Shown in pieces: positions 30,189-56,085 of a DNA stretch of 64,000 nucleotides. A program made the translations under genes and the position numbers. Each line of letters starts with the position of its first letter. Positions within the stretch are counted from its first letter, which is position 1. Where the stretch lies: IMG/VR virus record IMGVR_UViG_3300027741_000029, positions 1-64,000 of that record, one strand, 5' to 3'. This DNA comes from a virus. The notes under the pieces were generated by a model. The model was not told the origin of the DNA. It saw only the letters and a list, made by a program, of their open reading frames with translations, and did no database searches.

Positions 30189-30195
30189 ATATTTG

Positions 30196-31323
30196 ATGTT
30201 CATAAATCAGATAATAAACGAAGCACCAAAGGTTGGACGTGCTTTCCAACACGTAGAAGATTTAGTATTGATTAATGGCAGCAGCGGTGCGCAAAATGCC
30301 ATTTCTCGTCTCTCAACTCTTGCAAGTAATCCACAAATGGTAAGATGGAAATGGGACGGTAAGCCACAAGTATATTGGGGTCGTGAACCTGATGGCAAGT
30401 TCATCATGGTTGGTCACAATGGTTGGTTAAAACCAAATGAAAGTGGCAAGAGTCGTTCACCAGCAGAACTTGTAAAGTTTATTATGAGCACTGGCAATGT
30501 AGCACCTGATAAAGAAGATGAGCGTATGCGTTTTGCCAATGAATATGCCAGTCTATGGGCGTTATTTGAGGCAGCAACGCCGCAAGAATTTCGTGGTTAT
30601 GTATACGGTGATTTATTGTTTATGCGCCGTCCGCCACTAGAAAATAATTCATACACATTTACACCAAACAATGTAACATATAGTGTTCCTGTAACCACTG
30701 AACTTGGACAACGTATTTCGAAAGCAACAGCAGCAGTAGTAGGACATGCTTTCTTTCCACAGTTTGGCATGGGTGACGATCAACAACAACCTATTGATGA
30801 TTTTACCGCATTTAACAAGACACAAGGATTAATTGTGTTAGGTCCACGTTACGCAAGTCAACCTGTTAAAATTGACACAAAGAAACTACAAGACCTACAA
30901 AAGTATGTTGTAGCTAATAAAACTGCTATTGATAATTTCTTAAATGATGAACGACTTGCGGCAATGAAAATGGCAGGTTTCAAAGGTGTTCTATATAACT
31001 TTAATAACCAAATGGCAAAGAGTGGCAGAACCGCTGATCTTGCAAGTGAGTTTACTAATTGGTTAAGTAGCGGTAGCAAACAAAGTGCGCCGATGCAACA
31101 GAAGATTACGGATTGGATTGCGCAAAATCAAAAAGGTTTTATTGCAACCTTTGCGGTGCTAGAAAATCTACGCAGCGTTAAGAATCAAATTATTGATCAG
31201 TTGGATAGCGAAGGTGGCGATATCCAACAAACTACTAAGGGTCAAAAGGGTGGTGAAGGTTATGTCAACTATGGCGAACCTAATATTAAACTTGTGCCTC
31301 GCCATCGTTGGACACCAAATTAA
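30196..31323 (+). CDS. conserved T4-like phage protein with KxDG ligase-type motif and E-terminated leader
   Basis: MFINQIINE-AP; QHVED; KWDG; GGEGYV; TATAAATA 4 nt upstream. Confidence 0.7.
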   Translation: MFINQIINEAPKVGRAFQHVEDLVLINGSSGAQNAISRLSTLASNPQMVRWKWDGKPQVYWGREPDGKFIMVGHNGWLKPNESGKSRSPAELVKFIMSTGNVAPDKEDERMRFANEYASLWALFEAATPQEFRGYVYGDLLFMRRPPLENNSYTFTPNNVTYSVPVTTELGQRISKATAAVVGHAFFPQFGMGDDQQQPIDDFTAFNKTQGLIVLGPRYASQPVKIDTKKLQDLQKYVVANKTAIDNFLNDERLAAMKMAGFKGVLYNFNNQMAKSGRTADLASEFTNWLSSGSKQSAPMQQKITDWIAQNQKGFIATFAVLENLRSVKNQIIDQLDSEGGDIQQTTKGQKGGEGYVNYGEPNIKLVPRHRWTPN

Positions 31324-31366
31324 CCACACTCCAGTATACAGATAAATATTTTATCTGGATTGTATA

Positions 31367-34300
31367 ATGACCTTAAGCCACCGCACCATCTTCAATGAAG
31401 CACCAAATCCTCATGTTGCATTTGCATTTGGGAGATTAAATCCTCCACATTATGGTCACGAAGGTGTAATCAATACTCTTGCTAGCGTGGCAAAGAAAGG
31501 CAGTTGGGCGTTATTTTTAAGTAAAAGCCAAGATGCAAAAAAGAATCCGCTTACATATGATCAAAAGTTAAAGTGGGTTAAAACTTTATATCCACAAGTG
31601 CAAGGTCATCTTGTTGAAGACCCTAGTATTAAAACATTTCTTCAAGCAGCAGTATATTTGTATAATAAAGGGTTTCGTTCGGCTACCTTTGTTGCTGGTG
31701 AAGATGATATGGCAAGTATGCGTCCAGTGTTGGAGAGATACAATGGCGTAGAAAGCAGTCACGGCATGTATAAGTTTGAACCATTTTCATTCATGGAAAG
31801 TCCACGTTTAACAAGTGCTACCAATGCTCGCAAAGCAGTTACAGATAATGATCCAGAAGCATTTGAACGTGCTACAAGAGTAAAGCCAAACATTATGGTA
31901 GATGGCAAGAACCTATTTCAAACTGTTCGCATTGGCATGGGTCTTGGTGAAAGTATGGAAGAAAGTGTTATTACCGAGAGTGTTATTGCCAAAAACCTAT
32001 CAGTAGAACAACTTGCACACATTAGCGATAAGGCGTTGGACGATGCATATCATTATGGGTTATCTACACCAGGTGCTAACTTTGGTTGGTTAGCAAATAT
32101 TGAAAGTGCAACCGCTGCCAAGCGTATGATTGATAGTGGTATTACCGATGTAGATGCAATTGCCAACGCTATCCACGATGGTTGGAACAAGACCGCAATG
32201 GCTGATTATATGGGCAAGTTGCAGTTAGATGCGCCTACAATTCCCGATAAGAAAAAGAAGCGTTATGCACTTGCCCAACAAACTTATGGTCAGTTGCCAG
32301 AAGTAGAAAAAGAAAAAGACCGTGTAGTTGCTCGTGCTATGTTGAAGGCAATGGGTATCGTTACCGAAGCGCCAGGTATTGGTGGCGATTGGGGCGATAA
32401 TCCTAAACTTGTAAAGCGTGGTAGAGCACCGTATAAACCAAACATAGACAATACCTATTATGGTTCTACGCACGGAGTTGATCTTGACCTATACGGTTTA
32501 CCAAAGTATGAATTAGACGAAGACCTAACACCAGACCAATGGGCAGAGTTGCGCATTGCTGATCCAAAAGCCTATATGGGCAATAAGGATTATACTAATC
32601 GTCGTTGGTGGACTCTACAGTTTAAGAAGGCTCGTGCTGCTGCTCGTGAGAAGGGTGCGCAACGCTTTGAGTTCCCACCAGGTTCCAAGAACAGTTATAT
32701 GGTTGCACCTGACTTGGCAAACGAAGATACTGATCAACCAGATAGCAGCAACAATTCTGTTCGTAATCAGTTGAATGCTTGGATGGATCAAGACCAAAAA
32801 ATTAAAAACCCAACACAGCGGTTGTCACTGCAGAATAAGGCTTGGCAATATATTACCAAAAATATGGATGCCATCCTTGCTGACAAAGGTGCGGATGGTA
32901 AGGGAAGTTATCCTGCGGCACCATATGCGGCTTGGTTGCTAGTTCAACATATGGATGCTTATCCACAAAATCAAAGCAAGTTTCTACAACAACTGGAACA
33001 GTCAGGACTTGATCCTGCACCCAATCCTGGCGAAAAAGGAAAGTTACAGTTCTTAAAAGACCGTGTAGCAGTCAATAATGAAATTATAAAATTATGGAAT
33101 GCTGACAAGAATGCTTATAAAGATAAGAATGGACAATTACTTACTAATCCAACAGTAGATGTTCGTGATCCATCAAAGTTTGATGATGCTGATGAAAGTA
33201 AGATTGAAACATCTCGTAATGCGGCATTAAAAAATGCAGTAGAGGCTGGCAATACGCTACTTGTTGCCGCAGTAAATGCTACTAACGCACAAACACAACC
33301 ATCATACCAACAAGAAAGTGTAAGCGAAGGCAAAGTAACACTTTATACTGATCCAGATTATTTTGGTGCAGAAGTAGATGATAGTGGCTTTGATGCATTA
33401 CCGATCATCAATATTCCTACAAACAAACTTGTTGGGTTTGAACCCGATGATAAGATGAAATTACCAAAAGCCCAAGCAAATGTTGCGAAAATTATAGATG
33501 GTCTAGAGAAGAATGAAAATATACCACCTATTTTAGTTCGAAAATATAAGAGTGGTTATCAAGTATTAGATGGACATCATAGATTCTGGGCTTATAAAAC
33601 ACTTAAAAAAGATAGTATACCTGCACGATTAGTTCCTGATAGTGATATTGAAGAAATTAGCAAAAACAAAGTCAATGAAGCAGCAGATGGAACGCAACCT
33701 GAATATCTATGGCATGGTTCAAGAAATAAAATTCCTGTATTAAGCCCAAGACAAGCAGTTGATACTGGTGGTGCAACAGGTAGTAATAAAAATGCTATCT
33801 ATGCTACTGATAATAAAAATTTTGCTATTTTAATGGGTATGACAGAACCTAATAGTGATGTTGCTACTTTTCACACACCTGGCGAACCAATCCAAGGAGT
33901 TTTGTTTAGTGGTAAAATAAGACATGGGCAAAGTATGTATTTGCATATGTTGCCAACAAAAGATGCAGAAGGTAAAGATATTTTTATGCGTGGTTCTGCC
34001 GATGGCGAATATTATAGCAGACCAGATATTGAAGAATTAAAACCTTTAAAAATTATTGTTGTTCCAGTAGATGAACATTTGAATTTAATCAGAAAACCTA
34101 CAAAGAAAGATTTAGAATTACGACAATATTATCTTAATAGAGCAAACCAAAAACAAGAAAGCGTAAGCGAAGCCGCAGAAAAATCAACCAAAGCCGAGGC
34201 AAAGTATCAGGCAATGCCTCGCAATGGTCAACGCTGTGATCATTGCACTATGTGGCGACCACCACACGGTTGTTCGGCTGTTAGTGGCAAGATTGCGGCA

Positions 34301-37300
34301 AATGGTTGGTGTTCATATTATAAGCGCAGTCATCGTAAAGATTTAGAAGAAGACAGTGATAAAAGTGAAATCTTCAAATCATTAATTAAAAAATATCAAC
34401 TTGCTGGCAAAAGTGATGAAGAAGCACGAGACGCTGCTATAATTGATTTTGATAAAAGATTTGGTTGGCATAGAACGCTTACACCAGACCAATTAAAATC
34501 ATTAACGGGTGTAAAAAAATTAGAACTTGATGAGGCAGCATCACCAGTGTTGTTCCACTATACAGGTAGTTTGGGTGCAGCACTAAACATTCTTAAGAAC
34601 AATCAGTTTATGTTGAGCATTTCTACTGGTTCGGTAGAAGATCAGTATGCACCAAAAGGTTATGAGTATTTCCTATCTACAACACGCAGTAAGGCAGGCG
34701 GATATCATCAAATAGTTGGCGACACTGGCGTTATGTTTAACCTTGATGGCAATTGGTTTAATCGTCGTTATCCTGTGAAGGCAATTGATTATTGGGCAGG
34801 AATGTATAGAGGAGACCGTCATAGCGAAAGCGAAGACCGTGTATTCTCTCGTGAGCCATCTATGTCAGCAGATGCTATTACTGCTATTCATATCTTGTTA
34901 AAAGAAAAGGGTGAATATGCTAGTCCAAATACTCGTCAGTTGATGATTCTTGCCAAGAAGCGTGGCTTGCCAACCTATCTTTATAGTGATGAAAATGCTT
35001 GGAGATTACAAAATACTAAGCAAGCAGTACCAGTAAGTGGTGCTCAAGATTTACTGCGTGGTCAGAAGAAAACAGGTTATATCAGCAGCAGTAATTTTGG
35101 CAAGCGAATGTTAAGACCATGGTTAGAACTGATATTCAAGAAAAACCGCAGTGAGTTATCAAAGAAGGCAAATGAACTTCGCTATGGTTTAACATACTGG
35201 AACGGTGGTCAGTTTAGTGATGATCTTGGACTGCGTAATGAAATTTCAAATGCTCGTAAACCTGGTAGTAGTGGTTATCCAGAGGCTACTAAAATTATCG
35301 CAGCAATGCGCAAAATTGGTGCCAATAATGTAAAAGATTTACTAACATTCTTGCACAAGAAGTGGGATGCAGAAGCACAACAACCACTTAAAAGCGACAA
35401 TGATGCACAACGAGCAATTGCTAAAATCCGTGCCGATAGTGCTAAAAAAGAAAGTGTTGAAGAAGCACTTGATCCAAATGAAACACATGGTTGGATTTTG
35501 CCTAACCGCAAAGTTGTTTATGTTGAGAAGGAAGAACATCTGTCGTGGCTTTATAGTAATGACATTGATGGATATGAAGAAGCATTTACCCAAGGATATG
35601 TTCGTTTTGTAAATCTTCCCAATACATTTTTTCTAGAAGGAACATCAAGTGGTCTTAAAAAATTATACAGAGTATATGCAGCATCTGCACTATCAAGACC
35701 AAATATTGCCGTAGATGTTTATTATGGCAATAGAGGAAATGCAACTTCAAGTTATGATTTTACCATGCCACAAGAAAAAACAAAGTTTATGCGCTTACTT
35801 GGACCAAGTTCTGTTGGCGAACACGCTGGCAGCATTATTGGCACAGTAGGCGGCGGTAATGATTATCCTGACCGTCAGGTAGCCACTTTTCCATGGGACC
35901 GTTGGATACAGCCAGATACTGGCAACAGTAAATTAGCGTATGTTGATGACCTTGATGAAGTAAACATGAGTCCATCGGCTCTATCAAAGTTTGCTGCTAC
36001 TCCACAAGCACAGGCAATGACTATTGGTTTTGAAGCAGAAATGCTGGTGCCAGGTTTGGATTACGAAGATGAAGATGCAGACTATGGTGGTGTAAGCCGT
36101 GTGCAGTATGAGTTTCGCAGAGACCCAAGCAATTGGGATTTGAGTAAGGACGCTCCATTTCCAACTGAAAAAGATTGGGCTATACAAGTAGCAGCATGGG
36201 CAAGTAAAAGCGATATGCTTGATTCTGAGGATGTTGGCAATATTCGTGTTGAACTTCGTGATATAAACAAAAATTTTATCGCATATGTGGAAAAGAATAA
36301 AGATGTATCAACTGAAATAGTTAAACCAGAAAATTTAAAATGGATTGCTAATTACATTGACAAGAATACTGCGTGGATGTTAACTAAAAAAGAAATAAAA
36401 CAAGCAATCATAGATAACCCAAATGATTCCGATAGATATAGTGTTGTTTGGGACGCTCGCACAATCTTTATTGAAAAGATGCTAGAAGATTCAACACCAC
36501 AAGAATATGAAGAGTTATGGAAGGCTTATCTTAAAAGATATAATATTAAAAACATAAGTGATTGGTTTATGAGATGGGGACAACCACAAAATGATTATGT
36601 ATTTTACCCATACCTAAAAGGAACCCCACCACAAGACTCTACTGCGATAACCGTAAAAGAACTTGCCGTTAGTTGGAAGGCAGTGATTGGAGCAAATGTA
36701 AAGTATGGCGGTGGATATCATGGCATAAAGCGTGATGGCACTAGTTGGATTCTTGAGCCTGATAGCAGTATTAGTGGTGATGATAACGGTATTGAACTTA
36801 TATCACCGCCTATGCCGCTACAACAAGGCATGGCGGCACTTGATAAGTTCTTCCAATGGGCAGGTCAAAACGGATATTATGGCAATGAATCAACTGGATT
36901 CCATGTTGGTGTTAGCCTACCAGAAGAACTACAATCAAAAATTGACCCACTTAAAGTAGTAATGTTGCTTGGTGATCAATATGTGTTAGACCTATTTGAT
37001 CGTGGCAGCAATGAATATACCAAGAGCAGTCTTGGTGCAGTTCAAAAACTATTTAAATCACGCAGTAGTAATGTGCGACCAGAAGATTATGCTAAATTAT
37101 TGCGTAAAGATTTAGCAAGAACAGCACAAGCAATTGTCAATCGCACGATGAATGGCGGCAACAAGTATGTATCCGTTTATCTTAAATCTAATTATATTGA
37201 GTTCCGCAGTGCTGGCGGAAACTTTATGGAACACATAGACGATATCAAGAATACTGTGCTGCGTTATGTTCAGGTAATGGCAATTGCTGCTGATCCACAA

Positions 37301-37714: not shown

Positions 37715-37730
37715 ACAGGTAAATATATAA

Positions 37731-42395: not shown

Positions 42396-42464
42396 TTAAG
42401 ACTTGACTTATCCACAGGATATGATACACTTAAATTGTGTTCAATAATAGGGATAAATATTAGT

Positions 42465-42974: not shown

Positions 42975-42989
42975 TATGGGGGGACTACA

Positions 42990-43271
42990 ATGTATGACAC
43001 AATTTCAATTACTCAAGCCGCTGCATGGGATGAAGTCACCGAACTCTGGGAAGAATTCCAACAATCTACCGAATACCAAGAGCCTGTCAGTTTAAAACGA
43101 CAGGCTTTATTTTTTCTCCGCAAGAAAATGAATAGAAAAATAACACGCAGCGACCTACGTCGATTGAGTGCAAAGATAAACAAAATCAAAAACAGCAAAA
43201 ACCTTGAAGAACGCTCACGCAGTACTAAATTATATAAGGAACTGCAGCGAGTGTTTAATTGTCCGAAGTAA
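42990..43271 (+). CDS. hypothetical basic protein
   Basis: ORF with GGGA SD. Confidence 0.6.
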   Translation: MYDTISITQAAAWDEVTELWEEFQQSTEYQEPVSLKRQALFFLRKKMNRKITRSDLRRLSAKINKIKNSKNLEERSRSTKLYKELQRVFNCPK

Positions 43272-43567
43272 AAATAACCTTAATTCTTACACCAGAATCA
43301 TATGATTATGGCGCAGAAGATATTGTTTATAGAATAACTGTAAATGATCAACTAATATCTGAGCGTTCTATGCCACTGCTAGACCAAAATCAAGCAGTGG
43401 CTGATACATTTTTCTTAAACAACACATTGACAAAAAAGTATTATATATTAATTCAAAATTTAAAATTAAACAAAACAAAATATAAGGGTATTATCATTAA
43501 TGATAATAATCTTGGAACTATTAGAAATATACATACACGAGATTATATGATTAAAGTCAGTGAATAA
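43259..43567 (+). CDS. hypothetical AT-rich protein
   Basis: ORF; YRITVNDQLISE. Confidence 0.55.
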   Translation: MSEVKITLILTPESYDYGAEDIVYRITVNDQLISERSMPLLDQNQAVADTFFLNNTLTKKYYILIQNLKLNKTKYKGIIINDNNLGTIRNIHTRDYMIKVSE

Positions 43568-43589
43568 ATACTTCAAAGGACAATATGAA

Positions 43590-44495
43590 ATGGCTTATGA
43601 GTTAACAAATAGTTCCGTATATGGAAAAATATTATCTAAAAACGGAAAACCTGTCATAGAAAATTATGAAACAGCAGGCAAGTTAACAGAACGTTTTACT
43701 GGTTCACTTGTTAAAGTATTTGATGGTAGATATATGGTAAAATTACCAGAATCTGCAAATAGCATTGATGAATGTGATTGTGAGATCGTTGGACAAGAAG
43801 GCCCAAATGGTCAAATGATGCTATCATATAGCGAAGAACCTCGTGATAATGAAGTTCACATGGCACGTGCTGATCTTTATCGTACAGCAAAGTTAGCAAT
43901 CATGTTGCATGAGATGCTAAAGAATGTTGGTGAAGGACAGGGACTTGATGGATGGGTGCAGCGTAAACTAACTCGTGCTGCAGATTATATTGAAAGCGTA
44001 TTTGATTATATGGATTATGAAATGCGCTATCCAGAAGAAGGTATGATGGAAGCCGATACTCCTATTCAGGGAATGGCAGCAGCTTCACCAACACAACAAT
44101 CACAACAAACACCAGGCGGTGTTGCACCAAAGAAACCAGGTCTTACACAAACTCCTGGCATGGTAAAAATGGGCAAGATTGATACCAATGGCAATGTGCA
44201 AGGTGCTCCTATTATGGTACCAGCAGCGCAAGTTAAATCTAAACAACAAGCAGGTTTCCACGTAATTGGTGAAAGTGCAAGTGGCGGCGCAAGTTCGGCT
44301 GGCGGTATTGCTGTAGGTGCAATGAACGGTGGCATGGGCAGCAACAATGTTGGTTCGCTATTTGGTGGAACCTATAATCAGAAAAAGAAAAAACGTAAAG
44401 TAGAAGCCAAGGGCGAAACTGGTCCAAAGTTCACTGGATACTGGAAAGGCACCGACAAAGGTAAACCTGGTAAGAAGATGGTTGGCAGCAACTAA
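43590..44495 (+). CDS. modular protein with E-delimited segments
   Basis: TAAATA at 43565 and SD; HMARADLY...WVQRKLTRAADYIESVFDY module. Confidence 0.75.
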   Translation: MAYELTNSSVYGKILSKNGKPVIENYETAGKLTERFTGSLVKVFDGRYMVKLPESANSIDECDCEIVGQEGPNGQMMLSYSEEPRDNEVHMARADLYRTAKLAIMLHEMLKNVGEGQGLDGWVQRKLTRAADYIESVFDYMDYEMRYPEEGMMEADTPIQGMAAASPTQQSQQTPGGVAPKKPGLTQTPGMVKMGKIDTNGNVQGAPIMVPAAQVKSKQQAGFHVIGESASGGASSAGGIAVGAMNGGMGSNNVGSLFGGTYNQKKKKRKVEAKGETGPKFTGYWKGTDKGKPGKKMVGSN

Positions 44496-44524
44496 ATAAT
44501 ATAAACATATTTTAGGAAATATAC

Positions 44525-46336
44525 ATGAAACAAGACATTGCAGAAATGAGAAAATTATCAGGACTTCCTTTATACGAAGCAGCAGAGTTTAATCCTTTAC
44601 TAGAAAGTTGGACTACTGTTGGTCGTGCAATTAGTGAAGCAAAGTTAAGTCCTGAGCAAGTTGCTGCAATATTTGGTTCAGTTGAACAGGGCGCACGTGC
44701 AAGTGGAACAAATCGCACTGCAATTGGTAAAGGTGCGGATGCAGTAGGTTCTGCTGCTGGCGCTGCTGCTGGTGCTTATAGTAATATTTCTTCTGCAGTA
44801 AACAATGCATATCAGGGTATCGTTGCTAAAATTGGTCAACTTGGACCAGTTAAAAACTTTGATGATGCTTTTGATAGCATGGCAAGTAAACTTAAAAGTG
44901 CAACAGGCGGAGACGAAGGTATTGCCAAGTATGTATATGCTTATCGTGCATTTGCTAAAAACCATCCTGTATTACAAAATTTAATATATGGTGCTTTAGT
45001 TGCTGGCGTTGGTTTAGCAACTAGTGGTGTTGGTCCGCTTGTTGTTTTAGGTTTGTTTAAAGCTACTGATCGTTTGCTTCAGGGTGACAGATTGAGTGCA
45101 GCATTGATTAAAGCTGGTGTAACTGTAGGTAAGGCTGTAATCGGTCGTGAATTACAAGATTATTTATCAGGTAAAACACCACAAGTTCCATCTGCTGCTC
45201 AACAACAAGGTATGGGTGGTCGTGGTTTACCCGATGACTCAAGTCGAGCAATTCCAAATTATGATCAGCAACAAGGAATGTTAGGTCGAGGTATTCAACC
45301 ACCCAAAGGACCATCATTGCCTACAGGTGCAAATCCAGGCGATATTGCAACTGGTGGATTTGGTGCGGCTACGAATGCTGCAGGTTTAGATATTGGATCG
45401 GTTGTCCAAATAAGACCAGGTGATAACATATATAATATTTTAAAAAGAGCGTTTGATAATAATACACTTAATGTTGATCCGTCTAAGAATTGGCCAGAAG
45501 TATCTAAAATGATAGCACAGGCAAACCCACAAATAACAGATTTAAATAAAGTTTTTCCTGGTCAACGTTTGGGCATTCCAGATGTTTTGTTATATAGACC
45601 ATCACTAGGTAATCGTTTAGGCGATAGTATTGAAAGGCAAAATCAAAAAAATATCAGTGAATACATTGATAGAGAAGCAACCATTAACAGTTGGTTCTTA
45701 AGTGAAGGTGTTCTTGATGATGGTAGCCGCAGCGTTTGGGTATATGAAACCGCAGTTCCTGTTATCTTCCAACAAATTGAAGAAGCAGGTTTTTTCCAAG
45801 GTCTTAAGGACATTGGTAGTTCAATTGGTAAAGGTATTGGAAGTGCGGCTAGTGCAGTTGGTAATTATGTAGGCACAGCGGCAAGTAATATTGCTAACAA
45901 AACTACTGCTGATAAGCTAAACACGGCTTGGCAGAAATCCACATATAGTCAGGGTAGTGGCAGTGTTGATAGTAAAACCGTTGTGCAGTTTCTACGTCAA
46001 ATGGGTGTAGAAGATGCGATAATTAAGTCTACCTTTAAGAACATGAAAATACCATTTCCTCGTGGTCCACGCAAGCCAAAAACAGTAGCACCACAAGCAG
46101 CAGCACCACAAGCAGCACCACAAGCAGCAGCGGCTAAGCCAAAAGTGCGTGTGCCCGCTGGTAGTAAACCATCCACTCCATTTAAAGGGTTTGGAGGTGC
46201 ATTACAATCAGCGCCAGAAAGCGTAAGCAATCAAGATATCATGCGTATGATTAGCGAAGCTAAAAATCTAGCACAGCAAGCAGCAATCGCTATCAATATG
46301 AAGAAGCGTGGAAAAAAACCAAAAGGCAAAAAATAA
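44525..46336 (+). CDS. 603-aa protein with hydrophobic hairpin and LysM-like domain
   Basis: GALVAGVGLATSGVGPLVVLGLF; QIRPGDNIYNI...ANPQITDLNKVFPGQRLGIP. Confidence 0.75.
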   Translation: MKQDIAEMRKLSGLPLYEAAEFNPLLESWTTVGRAISEAKLSPEQVAAIFGSVEQGARASGTNRTAIGKGADAVGSAAGAAAGAYSNISSAVNNAYQGIVAKIGQLGPVKNFDDAFDSMASKLKSATGGDEGIAKYVYAYRAFAKNHPVLQNLIYGALVAGVGLATSGVGPLVVLGLFKATDRLLQGDRLSAALIKAGVTVGKAVIGRELQDYLSGKTPQVPSAAQQQGMGGRGLPDDSSRAIPNYDQQQGMLGRGIQPPKGPSLPTGANPGDIATGGFGAATNAAGLDIGSVVQIRPGDNIYNILKRAFDNNTLNVDPSKNWPEVSKMIAQANPQITDLNKVFPGQRLGIPDVLLYRPSLGNRLGDSIERQNQKNISEYIDREATINSWFLSEGVLDDGSRSVWVYETAVPVIFQQIEEAGFFQGLKDIGSSIGKGIGSAASAVGNYVGTAASNIANKTTADKLNTAWQKSTYSQGSGSVDSKTVVQFLRQMGVEDAIIKSTFKNMKIPFPRGPRKPKTVAPQAAAPQAAPQAAAAKPKVRVPAGSKPSTPFKGFGGALQSAPESVSNQDIMRMISEAKNLAQQAAIAINMKKRGKKPKGKK

Positions 46337-46863
46337 TGCGTATCGGTCAAATCACCAACGAAGCAGATAAGACTGATACCGTTAGTATGGATATCCCACT
46401 ATTACTTCGTATGATGGAATATGCTCGTGAAGATGCCAAGACTGATCTAGACTTGCATGATGTTGCTGAAAAGATGATTGAACTATCCAAGCATCATGAT
46501 TATCTGTGCATGGACAATTATAATGAAATCGTTGGCAGTGCTGGACATGATGACGTAGAAGAGTCCAATGCTTTCACTGATGCAAGAATGAATGCTATAA
46601 AGGCAGGTAAAAAATCATTCAATGTTGGTGGCAAAACATATCCCGTTACTGGTGATACAACGGATGAATTAGAAGCAGTTGAAGAAAGTTGCCCACACTG
46701 TGGTGGATTAATGTATGAAGCAAGTCTTATGAATGAGAAGAAAGATGCTTGCTATTATAAAGTAAAGAGCCGTTATAAAGTATGGCCAAGTGCTTATGCG
46801 AGTGGTGCGTTAGTTAAATGTCGCAAGGCAGGTGCTAAAAACTGGGGAAATAAATCCAAATGA
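46336..46863 (+). CDS. modular small protein (leader plus 3-4 E-delimited modules)
   Basis: MRIGQITNE; DIPLLLRMMEYARED; KKDACYYKVKSRYKVWPSAYASGALVKCRK. Confidence 0.8.
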   Translation: MRIGQITNEADKTDTVSMDIPLLLRMMEYAREDAKTDLDLHDVAEKMIELSKHHDYLCMDNYNEIVGSAGHDDVEESNAFTDARMNAIKAGKKSFNVGGKTYPVTGDTTDELEAVEESCPHCGGLMYEASLMNEKKDACYYKVKSRYKVWPSAYASGALVKCRKAGAKNWGNKSK

Positions 46864-47261
46864 GCGACATGGATTTAAGATATTTCATCAATAAAATGGA
46901 TGCTATTATACTTGGTGAAGAATCAAAAGATGAAACCAAAGATAGTGGTGAAGTTAAAGTTGGAAAGTACCAAACACGACATTTTGATATGTGTCCAAGT
47001 GCTACAAAGCTATATAAAAACATTAGTGATAAAAATGTTGATATGGGTATAGCAGAACGCACTGCTAAAATGCAAGATTTACTTTTTTATCTTGAAAAAT
47101 ATGCTAATGAACGTGGTAGTATTGAACCAGAATTTGCAACAATGGCAGAAGTCCTTGGCGAGCAAATTATGAATATGGCAAGCATGATGGATTTGTATGA
47201 TGAACATCATTATATTATGGATACGCATGTAAAAGCAATTAAGGATTTAGTAAAGTCATGA
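46860..47261 (+). CDS. hypothetical protein with E-terminated leader
   Basis: MSDMDLRYFINKMDAIILGEE. Confidence 0.75.
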   Translation: MSDMDLRYFINKMDAIILGEESKDETKDSGEVKVGKYQTRHFDMCPSATKLYKNISDKNVDMGIAERTAKMQDLLFYLEKYANERGSIEPEFATMAEVLGEQIMNMASMMDLYDEHHYIMDTHVKAIKDLVKS

Positions 47262-47740
47262 AAATGGAAGATGTTCTTGGCGAAGCATGTTGGGCAGGCT
47301 ATCACAAAGAAGGCATGAAAACAATGTTTGGAAAAAAATATCCAAACTGTGTCAAGAATAAAAAGAAACGTAGCGAAAGCACAGAACTTAAATGTGACCC
47401 GATTACAGAAAGTGTGCTGCTTGAACAAGTTGATTATTGTATGCACTGCGGAAATCTTGTATTACCAGAAGCCAAGGGTAATCTACACAAGTGGTTCAAA
47501 GACAAGTGGGTTAACATCGGTAAAAAAGTAGGTGGCAAACATCCACCGTGCGGCACAAGTGGCAGCAAGAGTGGTTATGCTAAATGTGTACCAGCAGCCA
47601 AAGCACGTAGTATGAGTGCATCAGAAAAACGTAGTGCAACAACTCGCAAACGCAAAGCACAAAATGCAGCAGGTCGTGGTGGTAAAGATACAGGTGGTAA
47701 TGGCAAGGCACCAATTCGTGTAAGCACCAAAGCCAAATAA
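47258..47740 (+). CDS. modular small basic protein
   Basis: MKMEDVLGE-ACWAGY...PNCVK; KWFKDKWV...PCG...KCVP. Confidence 0.8.
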   Translation: MKMEDVLGEACWAGYHKEGMKTMFGKKYPNCVKNKKKRSESTELKCDPITESVLLEQVDYCMHCGNLVLPEAKGNLHKWFKDKWVNIGKKVGGKHPPCGTSGSKSGYAKCVPAAKARSMSASEKRSATTRKRKAQNAAGRGGKDTGGNGKAPIRVSTKAK

Positions 47741-47762
47741 ATAATATATTAGGATTTATAAC

Positions 47763-48734
47763 ATGAGTGATATGCGTTCTTTAATTGAAAAACTTACTGC
47801 CATTAGTGAAGACCGTCCAACAATCGGTGATGGTGTATATTTGGAGTTTGGCAACATTCTACAAGTAGATACTGAGATTATGGAAATGAGTGAAGACAGT
47901 ATTACAATACTTGGTGATGAAAAATTATTTAAAGTTCTTGAAAGTTTAAATGAAATTGAAAGTCGTCCAGTTCGTAAAATTACAGAAAATGCACAGACAG
48001 TAAGAGATGCACTAATAAAAGGATTTAATACAAAACAATTCTCTGGTGATCGTTCTGCCGCAGTACATATTATGGATATTAAACCAGATGGAACTATTGT
48101 GGTAGATCGTCGAGAAAGTATTCAAGATGTACGCTACATGTTAATGAAAGGTGGTTTACCTGGTGTAAAAGTTGTTGCAGCAGTAGAAAAGTGGAATCAA
48201 CCAACACCACCTGAGCAAAAACCATCAATTGTTCAACAAGTGTTAAAAGCAATAGGTATTGGCGAAAGCGTAACAGAAGGTGAAGTAGTTTCCTTACAAG
48301 ATAATCACCAAACACTAAAACGTTTGGCAAAGATGTGGTGGCACGGTGATGAAGGCAAGCATGCACAAGCTGTAAAAATGTTGGGCAATATGGGTTGGGA
48401 TATTGCAGAAGATGATGATGATATTGTTCTTAATAAAGATGGTAAGGAAATTCGCTTCTTTATGGATGATTTATATGAATCAATCGTAGCAGAAGCAGAA
48501 TATCATGGTCGTAAAGTTCAATTGAATAAACCCCATAGAGGGGATGTTAAAAAATTTGCTGTCTTCGTTAAAGACCCTAAAACAGGCAATGTAAAAAAGG
48601 TAAACTTCGGAGACCCAAATATGAGGATTAAAAAGTCAAATCCAAAACGCCGTAAGAGTTTCCGTGCTAGACACCACTGTGAGAATCCAGGTCCACGCAC
48701 AAAGGCAAGATATTGGTCTTGCCGTAAGTGGTGA
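47763..48734 (+). CDS. modular protein ending in a basic Cys module
   Basis: MSDMRSLIEKLTAISE; IVAE-AEYHGRKV...KARYWSCRKW. Confidence 0.8.
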   Translation: MSDMRSLIEKLTAISEDRPTIGDGVYLEFGNILQVDTEIMEMSEDSITILGDEKLFKVLESLNEIESRPVRKITENAQTVRDALIKGFNTKQFSGDRSAAVHIMDIKPDGTIVVDRRESIQDVRYMLMKGGLPGVKVVAAVEKWNQPTPPEQKPSIVQQVLKAIGIGESVTEGEVVSLQDNHQTLKRLAKMWWHGDEGKHAQAVKMLGNMGWDIAEDDDDIVLNKDGKEIRFFMDDLYESIVAEAEYHGRKVQLNKPHRGDVKKFAVFVKDPKTGNVKKVNFGDPNMRIKKSNPKRRKSFRARHHCENPGPRTKARYWSCRKW

Positions 48735-48739
48735 TTTGA

Positions 48740-49372
48740 ATGTTATTAACAGAATTATTTGACCTTGATGAAGCCGCTGGTGTAGGTTTAGTTCGATTTA
48801 CTGGTAATACAATATTTGAAAGATTTGAACAGCATAAGAAAGATGCTTTGAAAATTCGTGACAATAGAAAATTTTATAATGCTATAAACAAGCATGGAGT
48901 TGATGTATGGAATATAGAATTATTAGAATCGGTTGAATCCGCAGAAATTGCCAAACAAAAAGAAATAGAATTTATAGAAAAATTTGATACCTATTATAAT
49001 GGATATAATTCTACAAAAGGTGGCGATGGCAATAATGGCATAATTATGTCAGAAGAGTCAAATGCAAAAAGAAGTAAAGCATTAAAAGGTATTGCTAAAA
49101 ATTATACAAGAATGCATGGTAAAATTCATTCAGAAGAATCTAAAAAGAAAATATCTGAATCACATAAGGGTAAGAAAAAACCTTGGGTAAAATGGGAAAA
49201 ATCTATTATAGAGAAACGGGCGATGACTCGTCGTGGCTTAACAAAGGAACAATTTGATTCCATCCATTTGTTAAAAAATGAAGGTTTAACAGCAAGAGAA
49301 ATATCAACCAACCTAAATTTATCACGGGATATGGTTAAAAAATGGTCCCTTAAAGAATGGGACTTCATGTAA
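48740..49372 (+). mobile_element. free-standing GIY-YIG/NUMOD3-type homing endonuclease gene with a borrowed N-terminus
   Basis: ERFEQH, KQKEIEFI, GYNSTKGG, MHGKIHSEESKKKISESHKG; GIY and YIG motifs absent. Confidence 0.8.
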
Positions 49373-49426
49373 TGTTATTAACTGAATTATTTGACCTTGA
49401 TGAAGCCGCTGGTGTAGGTGTAGTTC
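48740..49426 (+). repeat. 55-bp direct repeat (48740-48794 and 49372-49426, 2 mismatches)
   Basis: atgttattaac(a/t)gaattatttgaccttgatgaagccgctggtgtaggt(t/g)tagttc. Confidence 0.95.
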
Positions 49427-49581
49427 CTCCTACTAAGAAGGCTGCAAAAGACCCTCGTTATGCTAATGCGCTGACAGTTGATATTCATCCAGGCGAAACA
49501 CAAAAGCAAGCAGCAAAATTTGGCAATAAGACCGATAAAATTGGTCGCCCACCTATTATGAGTCCAAGTGGTAAGGTTTAA
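49372..49581 (+). CDS. small protein with E-terminated leader
   Basis: MLLTELFDLDE-AAGVGVVPP; TAATG coupling. Confidence 0.8.
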   Translation: MLLTELFDLDEAAGVGVVPPTKKAAKDPRYANALTVDIHPGETQKQAAKFGNKTDKIGRPPIMSPSGKV

Positions 49582-50672
49582 TGACTCAATTTACTGATAC
49601 ATTCTGTCGGCGTGCATTTACAGATTTAGTATTTGATTCTGGCATAATTAAACCTTGTTGTTATTTTTTATCAAATTTTACTAAAAAATTTCAAGATATT
49701 GAATCATCAAATCTGCAAGTTAGACAATATATCAAAGATAATAAATGGCACCCAGGCTGTGATAACTGTAAAAAAACCGAAAAAGACGGCAATAAAAAAA
49801 GTCATAGGTTGAATCACAAATATGATGATTTTGATTATGAATTATTTTATGAGAATAAATTTTCATTAAAAAATTTAGAGATTAGAGTTGACAATAATTG
49901 CAATATTGCTTGCATTACTTGTTTTAGTGATAGTAGTTCTCGTTGGTCTGCTGAATTAAAAAGAATGGGCGAACATGACCCATGTAAAAATAAAGTAAAC
50001 ACTGATATAGACAAACTTTTGACTTATGAAATTTGGAAAAATGTCGAAAAACTTACGATATATGGTGGTGAACCAATGTATAGTAAAAAAGTAGAAAAAA
50101 TACTATCATGGGCTGTAGAAAATAATTTAAGTGAAAAGATTGATGTACATTTTTTCAGCAATGGTACTATTATAAACAAAAATATTATTGATAAATTTGA
50201 AAGATTCAAATCAATTAATATTGGTTTTAGTATTGACGGAACATTTGACAGATACCATATTATAAGATGGCCAGCCAATTGGAATGAAACATTGGAAAAT
50301 TTTAATAAATTAAAATTAATGCCAAATGTTAATCTGTATATTATCTACACCTATAGTGTATTAAATGCTTACAATACCAAAGAAGATTTAGAAATTTTAA
50401 ATGAGTATTTTAATTGTCCTATTGTTCCTAATTTATTAATAAATCCATCATATTATGCCGCAAGAAATTTGCCAGAATCAATAAAGGAAAAATTAATAGA
50501 TCACTTAATTACGGTTCCTGAATTTTCATATCTCATAGCTGAATTACAACAACCAAGCAATGAGAAAGAATTAAAACAAGCTATCGAACGTGTTAAAAAA
50601 TTAGATAATTTTAGAAATACTGATAGTAGTATACTATTTGCATCAGAAGTATGGTCAATAGCCGATAAATAA
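49581..50672 (+). CDS. radical SAM protein with N-terminal SPASM/twitch-like Cys cluster
   Basis: CNIACITC, YGGEPM, SIDG; IKPCC...GCDNC. Confidence 0.85.
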   Translation: MTQFTDTFCRRAFTDLVFDSGIIKPCCYFLSNFTKKFQDIESSNLQVRQYIKDNKWHPGCDNCKKTEKDGNKKSHRLNHKYDDFDYELFYENKFSLKNLEIRVDNNCNIACITCFSDSSSRWSAELKRMGEHDPCKNKVNTDIDKLLTYEIWKNVEKLTIYGGEPMYSKKVEKILSWAVENNLSEKIDVHFFSNGTIINKNIIDKFERFKSINIGFSIDGTFDRYHIIRWPANWNETLENFNKLKLMPNVNLYIIYTYSVLNAYNTKEDLEILNEYFNCPIVPNLLINPSYYAARNLPESIKEKLIDHLITVPEFSYLIAELQQPSNEKELKQAIERVKKLDNFRNTDSSILFASEVWSIADK

Positions 50673-50676
50673 TCTT

Positions 50677-51030
50677 ATGCGTATTAAAGAAATCCTAGAA
50701 GCAGCAATGAGCACGACAATTCAAGGACGCCGCCCTATCAGTGCTGGTGCTCGTGGTCTAATGGCTGCTCGTTGGAAATATGATACCATCGTTCAGGGAA
50801 GTGATGGCAAGAACATGATAAACGCTGTTGAGCGTCTTGCAAGCACACTTGATGGCGCAGAACGCACTGACTATGATGGTATTGATAGTATGATGCAACA
50901 AATCTGCCGTGAGTTTGAAGTTGATCCAAAAGACCTTCATAATGCGTTTATTGCAAAATATAAATTGACACCCGATGCGATGGCTGCTAAAATGAAGCAT
51001 GATCGTAAAAACCGTCCAAAATCCGTCTAA
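50677..51030 (+). CDS. hypothetical protein with E-terminated leader
   Basis: MRIKEILE-AA; ATG 5 nt after TAAATA. Confidence 0.8.
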   Translation: MRIKEILEAAMSTTIQGRRPISAGARGLMAARWKYDTIVQGSDGKNMINAVERLASTLDGAERTDYDGIDSMMQQICREFEVDPKDLHNAFIAKYKLTPDAMAAKMKHDRKNRPKSV

Positions 51031-56062: not shown

Positions 56063-56085
56063 CAAAGAAAAGGTAAGGACAAAAT

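Follow-up and report, generated by a model that had tools for sequence, protein, structure and literature searches.

Glutamate-ending leaders and internal linkers in a late gene interval of an uncultured jumbo myovirus: probable capsid-targeting propeptides and their polyproteins

Introduction

The capsid targeting sequence (CTS) of phage T4 was reportedly described by Mullaney and Black in 1996. The CTS of IPI, IPII and IPIII, the Alt propeptides and the prohead protease gp21 have been reviewed (PMC9026906, PMC3012670); the CTS measures 10-19 aa, and cleavage follows the rule L/I-x-E (PMC9026906). T4 sequence records show the same grammar in IPII/III (MKTYQEFIAE↓A), Alt (MELITELFDE), gp22 (MLKEQLIAE↓A), gp24 (MAKINELLRE↓S) and gp23 (..FLTE↓AEIGG); here and below the arrow follows the P1 Glu.

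Two other systems are relevant. During head maturation of the giant phages PhiKZ/SPN3US, many proteins of the head and the ejection apparatus are cut after Glu by a diverged gp21 homologue (gp175/gp245; PMC10052503, PMC5694885). Iyer, Burroughs, Anand, de Souza & Aravind (2017; PMC5512222) proposed that polyvalent proteins, which occur in phages and conjugative elements, are processed by built-in zincin-like peptidase domains; their paper nowhere uses the word 'amidoligase'. For the cultured Agrobacterium jumbo phage Atu_ph07 a virion protein list is available, and the portions of its publication used here (Attai et al. 2018; PMC6102473) list the proteins and mention no shared leader or cleavage motif.

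Here we analyse a 64-kb stretch of viral DNA (the window), in which a first-pass annotation had marked positions 30196-51030 for short leaders ending in Glu.

Results

Source phage and relatives

The window belongs to a jumbo myovirus that is uncultured and whose core of replication and head-assembly functions is T4-like; its DNA polymerase is 45-49% identical to those of Phosso, Atu_ph07 and RaK2-like jumbo phages. The closest complete relative, G001 (338,435 bp), is syntenic with the window, its DUF6267 protein being 70% identical. In its genome a Peptidase_S77/gp21 gene (E=1.9e-26) lies next to those for the scaffold and gp23, and its capsid protein reads ..YLAE↓SASAG (L-x-E) where T4 has its maturation site. 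Protease and capsid protein are 49% and 59% identical, respectively, between Atu_ph07 and G001. No head genes lie in the 64-kb window, so we infer the phage's own protease from these relatives.

Genes for a putative ClpA/B-like ATPase and a putative DnaJ-like protein are found at 24091-27222, 3-6 kb upstream of the interval, and also in G001. Clp proteins are encoded by Atu_ph07 as well.

Leaders in the interval

All eleven leaders listed in the first-pass annotation are present as written, at ORF starts and at the coordinates recorded for them (features of the interval are collected in Table 1). When the first 25 residues of each gene are considered, a hydrophobic-x-E↓A form ([ILFVMT]-x-E-A) is present in 8 of the 16 genes inside 30196-51030 and in 1 of the 66 outside (Fisher p=2.9e-6); the internal background of 0.25 per 100 aa predicts about 0.9 matches. 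Since this motif was picked post hoc, after inspection of the data, it was re-tested on independent sets, and in these, too, the motif forms used showed enrichment or conservation. The plain form [ILFVM]-x-E is also found in the first 25 residues of 35 of the 66 genes outside. When every ATG (ORFs of at least 50 aa, both strands) was searched with a T4-CTS-like pattern, four places in the window matched, all four in the cluster; in G001 a CTS-like pattern gave 13 N-terminal matches versus 1.7 expected.

The leaders had been divided into two distinct classes. This is too simple, as at least three forms occur: a short M-R/K-x-x-E/Q-I/F-x-x-E, a longer MSDM... helix, and one with EMRKLSGL, in whose place orthologues have the short form. 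Nor is 'island' an apt term, given that similar leaders appear at several other loci in the 338-kb relative and that the interval also holds five genes with no leader. The leader MLLTELFDLDE, counted twice, does exist in both copies; they amount to one independent case, belonging to a 56-nt direct repeat (48739-48794 and 49371-49426, 96% identical) that flanks the NUMOD3 remnant and copies the neighbour's leader. The G001 copy of the homing endonuclease has its own GIY-YIG N-terminus.

TAAATA is present in 30 copies on the + strand of the window, 20 of them no more than 45 nt upstream of starts versus 1.7 expected. Most leaders had been said to follow such a box. This holds directly for six (at 30196, 31367, 37731, 44525, 47763 and 50677); the remaining leader genes lie downstream in an overlapping, operon-like succession. 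Three boxes are only 5-6 nt from the ATG, an odd distance for a promoter of that gene.

Table 1. Features of the interval (all + strand; arrows follow P1 Glu)
Feature	Position	Strand	Evidence
Late-promoter-like TAAATA boxes	30186, 31343, 37720, 44493, 47738, 50666 (span 30186..50671)	+	Box count near starts
DUF6267 protein, 9-aa leader MFINQIINE↓AP (30196-30222)	30196..31323	+	Pfam PF19782, E=5e-29
2115-aa polyprotein, candidate cargo, 11-aa leader MTLSHRTIFNE↓AP (31367-31399)	31367..37714	+	Internal E↓ sites
Candidate internal P1 Glu codons of 2115-aa ORF, first five	31976-31978, 32366-32368, 32723-32725, 33326-33328, 33677-33679	+	
Candidate internal P1 Glu codons of 2115-aa ORF, last four	34169-34171, 34532-34534, 35462-35464, 35957-35959	+	
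Module 1, cytidylyltransferase-like (HxGH)	31400..31978	+	phrog_3041 2.5e-33, phrog_395 3.7e-24
Module 2, weak RyR-like domain	31979..32368	+	Pfam RyR E=9e-4, below cut-off
Module 3, sub-joint after E453 (..DLANE↓)	32369..33328	+	No Pfam match
Module 4, ParB N-terminal-like	33329..33679	+	Pfam ParB_N E=1e-4 (just under cut-off) and PHROG ParB-like matches
Module 5, YLWHGS.. family	33680..34171	+	Stand-alone homologues P0121, P0122
Module 6, Cys-rich, HIPIP-like	34172..34534	+	Pfam HIPIP E=1e-5
Module 7, ADP-ribosyltransferase fold (Tpt1/DarT-like) and helical C-terminal part	34535..35464	+	AF2 pLDDT 90.8
Module 8, ends ..DDLDE↓	35465..35959	+	ORF end in relatives L007, L016
Module 9, Amidoligase_2, opens VNMSP	35960..37714	+	Pfam PF12224
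1554-aa polyprotein, candidate cargo, two amidoligase modules, 15-aa leader ..EEILNE↓VN (37731-37775)	37731..42395	+	Pfam PF12224, 2 stretches
Internal site ..ESILNE↓INMSP in 1554-aa ORF	P1 codon 40029-40031	+	
NT5C nucleotidase, sigma70-like promoter, leaderless	42435..42974	+	
Three leaderless ORFs	42990-43271, 43259-43567, 43560-44495	+	
603-aa protein, 18-aa leader ..LPLYE↓AA with EMRKLSGL (44525-44578)	44525..46336	+	
175-aa protein, Cys-rich basic C-terminus, leader MRIGQITNE↓AD (46336-46362)	46336..46863	+	
133-aa protein, long MSDM.. leader ..AIILGEE↓SK (46860-46922)	46860..47261	+	
160-aa basic protein, weak DUF5872 match, leader MKMEDVLGE↓AC (47258-47284)	47258..47740	+	
323-aa protein, 16-aa MSDM.. 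leader ..LTAISE↓DR (47763-47810)	47763..48734	+	
Homing-endonuclease remnant, NUMOD3	48740-49372 (with repeats 48739..49426)	+	
69-aa protein, leader MLLTELFDLDE↓AA (49372-49404)	49372..49581	+	
Radical SAM gene, leaderless, insert between two candidate cargo genes	49581..50672	+	Pfam PF04055, 7e-12
117-aa protein, leader MRIKEILE↓AA (50677-50700)	50677..51030	+	

DUF6267 protein and giant ORFs

Homologues at 40-90% identity retain the DUF6267 leader, and those of cyanophages lack it; among 42 homologues E9 shows a conservation of at least 90%, and K52-W-D-G55 is invariant. In an AF2 model of the protein (pLDDT 93) residues 1-9 are the sole segment below 50. An exhaustive fold search with it returned RNA/DNA ligases as all of the top nine matches (Z 5.4-7.1), so on the model this is probably a divergent ATP-dependent ligase-like nucleotidyltransferase.

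The two giant ORFs are polyproteins that use the same E↓ grammar inside as in their leaders, a feature absent from the first-pass finding. As L/I-x-E is a short, common motif with about 2 occurrences per 100 aa, it does not by itself allow a single internal site to be called; in the 2115-aa ORF, indels and homology-block joints of relatives fall within 0-3 residues of the E↓ positions. Module 2 is missing in G001, the deletion being bounded by ..GLGE↓AVEENITE↓APGIGGD; L007, L016 and L022 all break at DLANE↓ of module 3; and block 653-774 (module 4) shifts as one unit in L022. The two stand-alone homologues of module 5 each have their own N-terminal leader (MRLKE↓.. and MRAQEFTQGVAE↓GKV..), and ..E↓A(A/T)EKSTK always precedes module 6 (window, L007, L022 and G001). 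For module 7, which has 1249 homologues, the fold matches include Tpt1 (Z 10.8) and DarT (Z 9.2-9.8); all 50 matches listed are ART-superfamily, Tpt1/KptA-type, or a structural-genomics protein of unknown function. Module 9 is homologous to the Atu_ph07 virion protein gp196. In G001, where the orthologue of the 1554-aa ORF has 2845 aa, the leader of this ORF lies inside the protein as a linker. A Pfam search found no peptidase domain in the giant ORFs.

The joint ..LANE↓ has Ala at P3. Cyanophages encode the module 1 enzyme beside DUF6267, without a leader. There the two genes sit among early or metabolic genes, and both products resemble cytoplasmic enzymes.

Smaller genes

Orthologues of the 603-aa protein keep the mature start AA(D/E)FNPL behind a different, short leader, M.TT.LFE↓; EMRKLSGL is also found at the end of the G001 scaffold protein. 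Orthologous leaders read MRIRQIVSE↓ for the 175-aa protein and MRI(R/S)EITE↓AT or MKVKEIIE↓AA for the 117-aa protein, while that of the 160-aa protein is identical in G001 and IMG/VR relatives. In the 323-aa protein P2 (S/A) is the only varying leader position among orthologues, and an internal ..SIVAE↓AEYHGRK joint leads into a basic C-terminal module; the YHGR module is preceded by ..VDE↓A in the unrelated protein P0121. The leader of the 69-aa protein is similar to the T4 Alt N-terminus (MELITELFDE), and in L046, which lacks the radical SAM gene at this place, this protein is joined to the next candidate cargo gene through ..KVNE↓ATMSTT. The weakest leader case is the 133-aa protein, because it is found only in very close relatives, its MSDM.. 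leader being without support from distant ones. G001 orthologues of the leaderless genes in 42435..44495 also have no leaders.

Conservation and exchange at Glu

Across leader orthologues a hydrophobic P3 and the P1 Glu are kept and P2 is free. Two family sets were drawn from metagenomes, with members no more than 50% identical to each other. In the amidoligase set (109 homologues) P3 is L/I in 109/109 and P1 is E in 109/109, and 15 aa is the commonest leader length. In the ART-fold set Glu occupies P1 in 98 of 104 N-terminal contexts and in 40 of 43 internal ones, and the 9-aa leader consensus is M-(R/K)-(A/I)-x-(E/D)-(I/F/L)-(L/I)-x-E. Module gains and losses in L007, L016, L022 and G001 join at E↓; no DNA-level motif beyond the codons was found at module joints. 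N-terminal leaders and internal linkers are, judged by sequence, equivalent. Leaders are separable from the mature proteins: cyanophage homologues of DUF6267 and the cytidylyltransferase lack them, two unrelated leaders occur before one mature start among the 603-aa protein and its orthologues, and residues 1-9 alone are disordered in the DUF6267 model.

Leaders in the Atu_ph07 virion

Leaders of the form M(R/K)(W/L/Y)x(Q/D/E)LxE are carried by 20 of the 140 Atu_ph07 virion proteins (mass spectrometry, Table S5 of PMC6102473) versus 18 of its 658 other ORFs (p=4e-7); the virions were PEG-purified only, and the list has likely contaminants (e.g. topoisomerase, RNR). All 20 are backed by at least two unique peptides. 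The amidoligase homologue gp196 was detected with 14 peptides and 30% coverage (PMC6102473). Several of the large virion proteins migrate at sizes far smaller than predicted; gp196 migrates near or above full size, by which removal of 13 residues is neither shown nor excluded.

Discussion

The locus resembles the T4 system in its 8-21 aa N-terminal leaders ending in L/I-x-E↓A. Compared with MKTYQEFIAE, the 9-aa consensus M-(R/K)-x-x-E-F-(L/I)-x-E lacks one residue, and its targeting (F) and processing (I/L, E) residues are spaced alike. In both, the leader is the sole common part of otherwise unrelated, fast-changing cargo, which includes an ADP-ribosyltransferase-fold enzyme here (compare Alt), and relatives of this phage encode a gp21-family protease. 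It differs in belonging to a jumbo phage of the Atu_ph07/RaK2 group, in having several leader forms, known here from sequence, and in a cargo where small basic proteins are accompanied by polyproteins of 234 and 174 kDa, which have from 2 to about 9 internal sites. Polyvalent proteins likewise combine many unrelated effector-type domains (ART, ParB-like and others) in one late-expressed polypeptide predicted to travel with the DNA, with extensive module shuffling among relatives; here, however, the Pfam searches found no peptidase domain, and the modules are bounded by sites of what would be a trans-acting prohead protease. PhiKZ/SPN3US share cutting after Glu by a gp21-type protease, and propeptides with several sites are possible there, but the motif of those phages is (A/S/G)-x-E, most of their propeptides measure 111-254 residues, some 80% of the head proteins escape cutting, and neither a short shared CTS-like leader nor an enzyme polyprotein is described (PMC10052503, PMC5694885). 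Atu_ph07 belongs to the same broad group, has a gp21-type protease, and has its amidoligase homologue and 20 leader-type proteins associated with the virion; its cargo, the amidoligase excepted, is unrelated to that of the window.

We consider it probable that the leaders are T4-type capsid-targeting propeptides and that the giant ORFs are polyproteins cut at the same sites, the cargo being loaded, trimmed and delivered with the DNA. The T4-style reading of the first-pass annotation survives in this respect on indirect evidence, through the gp21 protease and L-x-E capsid site of G001, the conservation of P3 and P1, the leader exchanges and module joints at E↓ and the Atu_ph07 enrichment; its two classes and its island do not. 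There is a small chance that the sites are cut for polyprotein maturation or head assembly with no delivery, the products acting late in the cell or being expelled as core filler like T4 gp22, gp67 and gp68. T4 core proteins do share these sites and for the most part do not remain in the head, and in cyanophages DUF6267 and the cytidylyltransferase are leaderless and non-structural. The modules here are nevertheless folded enzymes (ART fold, ligase-like, amidoligase, ParB-like), unlike an acidic coiled-coil scaffold; mature Atu_ph07 virions still contain, at good coverage, the amidoligase homologue and the 20 leader-type proteins, and T4 Alt, a packaged ADP-ribosyltransferase, is a direct precedent.

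That leaders and linkers stay uncleaved, as a conserved N-terminal helix or interdomain linker for oligomerisation or partner docking, with L/I-x-E a by-product of amphipathic acidic linkers, is unlikely when one three-residue rule stands before unrelated modules, at N-termini and internal joints, across hundreds of proteins whose mutual identity does not exceed 50%. Unrelated leaders are moreover swapped ahead of one mature start, disorder in the DUF6267 model is confined to the leader, the non-T4 phage Lu11 has another shared leader (MKIQLAVA) on the same ART family, and in Atu_ph07 leader-type proteins are concentrated in virions, where many proteins migrate far below predicted size. The motif is short, though; conserved P3 and P1 with free P2 would also fit a helix face, an invariant L-x-E ahead of a module could mean a structural role of the segment, and gp196 migration is compatible with this as with cleavage. 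The putative chaperone-like genes upstream in the window and in G001, and the Clp proteins of Atu_ph07, could suggest tags for another machine, whether that ClpA/B-like ATPase and DnaJ-like protein or a host protease; this is quite improbable, the motif fitting gp21-family specificity and the lineage's own capsid maturation site, a Clp degron of such form not being known, and virion enrichment not being predicted. An AT-rich genome yields many I/L/N/E-rich N-termini, and the plain motif is frequent outside the interval, but composition or chance, a negligible prospect given the E↓A counts against 0.9 expected, is ruled out by replication in G001, Atu_ph07 and three protein families.

Under the capsid-targeting reading we infer scaffold docking, cleavage at the E↓ sites, packaging of this phage's proteins, and injection. 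The front part of the leader, M-(R/K)-x-x-(E/Q/D)-(I/F/L), would dock the protein to the scaffolding core during prohead building, and a gp21-family prohead protease would cut after the Glu of its (L/I/F/V/T)-x-E end once the shell has closed. One N-terminal leader would suffice to load a whole giant chain, whose internal x-E↓ linkers the same protease would cut, releasing a cytidylyltransferase, a ParB-like domain, an ADP-ribosyltransferase-fold enzyme, three amidoligases and several modules of unknown function. The mature pieces would remain in the DNA-filled head and probably exit with the DNA at infection, like T4 Alt and IPI-III.

Leaders and candidate late promoters in the window

Leaders are written here with an arrow at the candidate cut after Glu; residues before the cut are P3, P2 and P1, and the residue after it is P1'. 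Those quoted in the first-pass annotation do exist, each opening an ORF where that annotation had placed it. Ten are independent, with E at P1, I, F, L, T or V at P3, and A at P1' in eight. One had been counted twice: the MLLTELFDLDE pair is a 56-nt direct repeat flanking a NUMOD3 homing-endonuclease remnant, and the double count was rejected as a product of that duplication. The endonuclease ORF has lost its GIY-YIG start and opens with 16 codons duplicated from the beginning of the cargo gene downstream; its orthologue in G001, a 338,435-bp IMG/VR contig with terminal repeats, has its own GIY-YIG N-terminus. The proposed division into two leader classes was also rejected as written.

N-terminal motif enrichment, suggested earlier as a check, was run with the pattern [ILFVMT]-x-E-A in the first 25 residues, which matched 8/16 genes of the cluster vs 1/66 genes in the rest of the window (p=2.9e-6; ~0.9 matches expected from the internal rate of the pattern). 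When ATGs opening ORFs of ≥50 aa on both strands were scanned with a second pattern, built after the T4 capsid targeting sequence (CTS), the window gave four matches, 4/4 within the cluster; one starts at a Met inside the 2115-aa ORF. Five genes of the interval have no leader, among them an NT5C nucleotidase with a sigma70-like promoter. Both giant ORFs hold the same E↓ sites internally.

Of 30 + strand copies of TAAATA, 20 precede a start by no more than 45 nt vs 1.7 expected; because the copies cluster upstream of starts, fibre-like genes included, TAAATA behaves as a late-promoter element. The claim that such a box precedes most leader genes is borne out for six, which have one directly upstream, but the rest come in overlapping order. 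Three boxes (see table) stop just 5-6 nt ahead of the ATG, and if they serve as promoters, the late mRNAs of those genes would be near-leaderless.

Relatives and the conservation of leaders

The window has 38% G+C and carries nearly all its genes on the + strand. No near-identical DNA was found among 50,697 cultured phage records. Its DNA polymerase shares 45-49% identity with those of the jumbo myoviruses Phosso, Atu_ph07, Vibrio 2.275.O and the RaK2/GAP32 group. Putative clamp-loader-, sliding-clamp-, RNase H-like and tail-fibre-like genes were read by eye, and there is no head module within the 64 kb. In IMG/VR, 41 contigs have orthologues of the first cluster gene (65-98% identity). G001, with an orthologue 70% identical, was compared over its full length; a closer 335-kb contig exists, encoding a DUF6267 protein 87% identical to that of the window. 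The close relatives come from freshwater samples.

The cluster is syntenic in G001 and leaders are retained in the orthologues (MFINQILTE↓AP, MKMEDVLGE↓AC, MKVKEIIE↓AA, and MSDMRSLIEKLTAISE↓DR, identical to the window's), while two G001 genes with no window counterpart still bear leaders, MRYSEIIGE↓DT and MRINDIIVE↓TD. Across the IMG/VR relatives a hydrophobic P3 and a Glu at P1 are constant and P2 varies (N/S/T/A/M in DUF6267, S/A in ORF 47763, L/T/I in ORF 50677).

The leaders are add-ons to their proteins. The 603-aa protein shows this best: its mature start AA(D/E)FNPL is constant in all relatives, but the leader before it reads MKQDIAEMRKLSGLPLYE↓ in the window and M.TT.LFE↓ elsewhere. 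In cyanophages, DUF6267 and the cytidylyltransferase beside it start straight at the conserved core, without a leader, and the AF2 model of DUF6267 (pLDDT 93.3) has one low-confidence stretch, residues 1-9, which is exactly the leader.

Over the whole of G001 the CTS-like pattern has 13 N-terminal matches, spread over several loci, vs 1.7 expected. Beyond the syntenic cluster G001 has further genes whose leaders are of the MRA(S/K)EF..E type, and leader-bearing genes therefore form several groups in this contig. A separate motif, E-(M/I)-(K/R)-(K/R)-L-(A/S)-G-(L/I), occurs at the window and G001 positions given in the table; from its sequence it may be a second, scaffold-like docking element.

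Module joints in the giant ORFs

The 2115-aa ORF has ~9 modules, and its relatives' versions of 1050, 1066, 1875 and 2845 aa have differing module sets. In G001 a single 2845-aa ORF combines modules that the window holds in its 2115-aa and 1554-aa ORFs, and the N-terminal leader of the window, ..LILEEILNE↓VNMSP, is there the internal ..LITEELLNE↓VAMSP. Window module 205-334 is absent from G001, where the joint reads ..GLGE↓AVEENITE↓APGIGGD. Other modules are missing from three further relatives, L007 (1050 aa), L016 (1066 aa) and L022 (1875 aa), with every joint at E↓: L007 and L016 stop at the position of the window's ..DDLDE↓VNMSP, and ..DLANE↓GKVKLYTDP of L022 corresponds to ..ESVSE↓GKVTLYTDP of the window. 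Likewise, ..KVNE↓ATEKSTK and ..NLDE↓AAEKSTK of relatives correspond to the window's ..ESVSE↓AAEKSTK. In another related locus, L046, ..KVNE↓ATMSTT joins two small cargo genes into one, the window equivalent being MRIKEILE↓AAMSTT. These correspondences indicate that one kind of element serves both as N-terminal leader and as inter-module linker. When a DNA-level recombination motif was looked for at the joints, nothing was conserved beyond the hydrophobic-x-Glu-Ala codons, and the constraint therefore acts on the protein. Neither Pfam nor PHROGs found a peptidase family in either giant ORF.

Replication in large protein families

The amidoligase module has 848 homologues. Among the best 120 (~40% identity), 109 with a (V/I/L)-x-M-S start were used, and in these P1 is Glu in 109/109 and P3 is Leu in 103 and Ile in 6, with seven different residues at P2; the commonest leader length is 15 residues, e.g. 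MRYREFELTEDELFE↓. For module 7 of the 2115-aa ORF, 1249 homologues were found in a set of cluster representatives at 50% identity. In the top 150 of these, the module is N-terminal behind a leader in 104 (P1 Glu 98/104, P3 L/I 100/104) and inside multidomain proteins in 43 (P1 Glu 40/43, P3 L/I 41/43). In the 104 N-terminal cases the commonest leader length is 9 residues, and the 9-residue consensus, M-(R/K)-(A/I)-x-(E/D)-(I/F/L)-(L/I)-(T/N/S)-E, is the T4 IPII/III CTS less one residue. DUF6267 homologues at ~40% identity read MRFTEFRTVLTE↓AAKVGR... Five of the DUF6267 homologues compared (P0349, P0354, P0360, P0373 and P0380) have a Cys-rich insert of ~15 residues (..WVCGKC.C.PC.CE..) between two L-x-E sites; by its sequence this may be a mini-module, which would then come free as a peptide of its own.

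Pseudomonas phage Lu11, an unrelated jumbo phage, has tandem paralogues of the module 7 family that all open with another shared leader, MKIQLAVA. At least six consecutive genes open with M(K/R)IQLA(V/L)A, and three of these run into the same ART-fold family (..SSVLYH..). Judging by sequence, this phage, which has no recorded T4 link, seems to have a counterpart of the leader system specific to its lineage. The leader tracks the phage lineage and the module the cargo.

The head protease and the Atu_ph07 virion

The T4 prohead protease gp21 cuts by the rule L/I-x-E, and the T4 CTS is 10-19 residues long, residues 4 and 7 serving targeting and 8 and 10 processing (PMC9026906). From the T4 record we took gp22 MLKEQLIAE↓A, gp24 MAKINELLRE↓S, IPII/III MKTYQEFIAE↓A, IPI MKTFKEF..ITE↓A and Alt MELITELFDE. 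In T4, replacement of the P1 Glu by Asp prevents the cut. A gp21-family protease (Peptidase_S77, PF03420) is encoded by G001 (90 bits) and Atu_ph07 (gp204, 77 bits); in G001 its gene lies between an acidic core protein and the scaffold and adjoins the gp23 capsid protein and portal genes. Between these phages the protease is 49% and the capsid protein 59% identical. The G001 capsid protein has ..KKYLAE↓SASAGATAAGN.. ~25 residues ahead of the conserved VILPVIRRV block, a position equal to the T4 gp23 cut (..FLTE↓AEIGG). Its scaffold begins MFE↓AL..LLNE↓D, and the Atu_ph07 capsid protein gp215 has a ..PLME↓NATAG site. In this lineage the leaders share their site with capsid and scaffold proteins, which calibrates the specificity of the protease.

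Attai et al. identified 140 Atu_ph07 proteins by ESI-MS/MS of virions (Table S5; PMC6102473). We assigned the rows of that table to ORFs by gene order together with molecular weight. Purification of the virions was by PEG only, and the list includes likely contaminants. Leaders of the form M(R/K)(W/L/Y)x(Q/D/E)LxE open 20/140 virion proteins vs 18/658 other ORFs (p=4e-7), and most of the 18 are poor look-alikes. The virion proteins with such leaders are gp43, gp53-63, gp381, gp394, gp408, gp482, gp487, gp548, gp561 and gp672, with 2-31 unique peptides each. The eleven consecutive genes gp53-gp63 all open with M(R/K)(W/L)xQLxE and all their products were detected in virions; nine are ~250-270 aa with a ..YRG motif, and Pfam gave no family for these paralogues. 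The sole virion protein homologous to the window's cluster is gp196 (14 unique peptides, 30% coverage), 29-33% identical to the amidoligase modules, with the N-terminus ..KKLTE↓LKMNSS. Peak abundance in the gel lies far under the predicted size for gp53 (87 kDa, band 9), gp44 (86 kDa, band 10), gp108 (98 kDa, band 13) and gp482/483 (32-34 kDa, band 12), which indicates extensive processing of several large virion proteins.

Predicted cargo identities

The model of module 7 (pLDDT 90.8) matches Tpt1 with Z 10.8 (rmsd 2.2 over 109 residues) and DarT with Z 9.2-9.8 (141 aligned), and all 50 rows listed in the fold search are ART-superfamily, Tpt1/KptA-type or a structural-genomics protein of unknown function. 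With high confidence from the model, this module is predicted to have an ADP-ribosyltransferase fold, nearest Tpt1 and DarT; H8, S48, R51, E98 and E100 are invariant or nearly so and are candidates for the catalytic triad (H-Y-E or R-S-E) of the superfamily, and T4 Alt offers a parallel. Module 5 had been guessed to be a second ART from an HGS..Y..E pattern, a guess left unsupported by a profile comparison with the ART-fold family, which showed no relation (probability 0.3); an Atlas look-up of it returned unnamed clusters only.

In DUF6267, K52-W-D-G55 (the ligase motif I K-x-D-G), G353-E-G355 and K365 are invariant in 42 homologues. Foldseek and a PDB sequence search gave nothing significant for it; the top nine of an exhaustive fold search are RNA/DNA ligases at a modest Z of 5.4-7.1. 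It is probably a divergent ligase-type nucleotidyltransferase, judging from model and motifs. A cytidylyltransferase always follows it, as a separate gene in T4-like cyanophages (loci L072 and L073) and as module 1 of the giant ORF here, and the pair looks like a conserved two-enzyme unit. The small cluster proteins are basic and partly Cys-rich. At a lenient threshold, Pfam gave nothing for the 603-aa protein, ORF 46860, ORF 47763 and the stretches so marked in the table.

Features of the window and of the phages and contigs compared with it
Source	Feature	Coordinates	Observation
Window	IF-1 homologue	7977-8192	putative, by eye
Window	HesB/IscA-like protein	8193-8540	putative, by eye
Window	ORF	22171-22692	
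Window	docking-like motif	22666-22689	extreme C-terminus of ORF 22171-22692
Window	DnaJ-like protein	24091-24957	putative, by eye
Window	ClpA/B-like ATPase	24988-27222	putative, by eye; 744 aa
Window	TAAATA boxes near ATG	30186, 37720, 50666	
Window	cluster (+)	30196-51030	
Window	DUF6267 protein	30196-31323	
Window	2115-aa ORF	31367-37714	cytidylyltransferase, weak RyR-like segment, ParB_N-like, HIPIP-like Cys-rich, Amidoligase_2, four modules without family
Window	stretch of 2115-aa ORF	32369-33328	no Pfam, lenient threshold
Window	module 5	33680-34171	no Pfam, lenient threshold
Window	module 7	34535-35464	no Pfam, lenient threshold
Window	stretch of 2115-aa ORF	35465-35959	no Pfam, lenient threshold
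Window	1554-aa ORF	37731-42395	two further amidoligase modules
Window	stretch of 1554-aa ORF	41541-42392	no Pfam, lenient threshold
Window	docking-like motif	44546-44569	in leader of 603-aa protein
Window	NUMOD3 endonuclease ORF	48740-49372	repeat region 48739-49426
Window	DNA polymerase	52548-55208	
G001	MRA(S/K)EF..E-type leader genes	20660-21484, 59519-62367, 285843-286322, 297068-300048	beyond syntenic cluster
G001	76-aa protein	53893-54123	docking-like motif at N-terminus
G001	1080-aa protein	54120-57362	docking-like motif inside
G001	scaffold protein	144835-145932	docking-like motif at C-terminus
Atu_ph07	gp53-gp63	39484-50592	
Lu11 (L077)	M(K/R)IQLA(V/L)A genes	752-6779	

Interpretation

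We consider it likely that the leaders are cleavable prohead-protease propeptides that mark head cargo. The leader would dock the precursor onto the assembling core, a gp21-type protease would cut after L/I-x-E, and the fragments would remain in the head and exit with the DNA. The injection of the cargo is held with less confidence than the cleavage.

Cleavage without delivery is the least improbable of the alternatives, though still unlikely. Slightly less probable is an uncleaved structural element; against it stand the gel positions and the concentration of leader-type proteins in virions. The leaders might also be a tag for some other machine, and we give this little credence, with the L/I-x-E match and the virion enrichment on the other side. 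Chance can be set aside almost entirely in view of the window, family and virion counts.

Its extension to a general 'cargo grammar' in T4-related jumbo phages we hold at even chances: one CTS-like leader would load a whole polyprotein of up to ~2,800 residues, the head protease would cut the L/I-x-E linkers, the enzymes would enter the host with the DNA, and cassettes would be exchanged. Its products would be a DarT/Tpt1-like ADP-ribosyltransferase, a ligase-like enzyme, amidoligases, a ParB-like domain and a cytidylyltransferase. With each module starting directly after E↓, phages could trade modules and leaders as cassettes.

The principle of diverse internal proteins with the CTS as their sole common part is known from T-even phages (PMC3012670), as are polyvalent proteins (PMC5512222). 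The latter combine two to fifteen unrelated effector-type domains with shuffling (Iyer et al. 2017), as does the 2115-aa ORF here; a built-in peptidase, a zincin-like MPTase or another, is typical of them yet not obligatory, and Pfam and PHROGs showed none in the two giant ORFs. What appears to be new is the polyprotein form processed in trans that T4-related jumbo phages would use, together with the evidence, seen across whole families, that cassettes are exchanged at E↓; in a limited literature sample we found no description of prohead-protease polyproteins or of such exchange.

Existing virion mass-spectrometry data, re-analysed, could prove or disprove the cleavage cheaply, and short leaders and linkers could be used to load several proteins together into T4-type capsids. 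If the reading is true, this would be a previously undescribed, trans-processed version of polyvalent proteins, in which a head-maturation protease can serve that strategy in place of built-in peptidases, and the swapping of cargo modules between phages would be explained. The injected proteome of a large, mostly uncultured jumbo-phage group could then be read from sequence alone, as everything after a leader or an E↓ linker, and many proteins of unknown function would gain a place of action in the first moments of infection.
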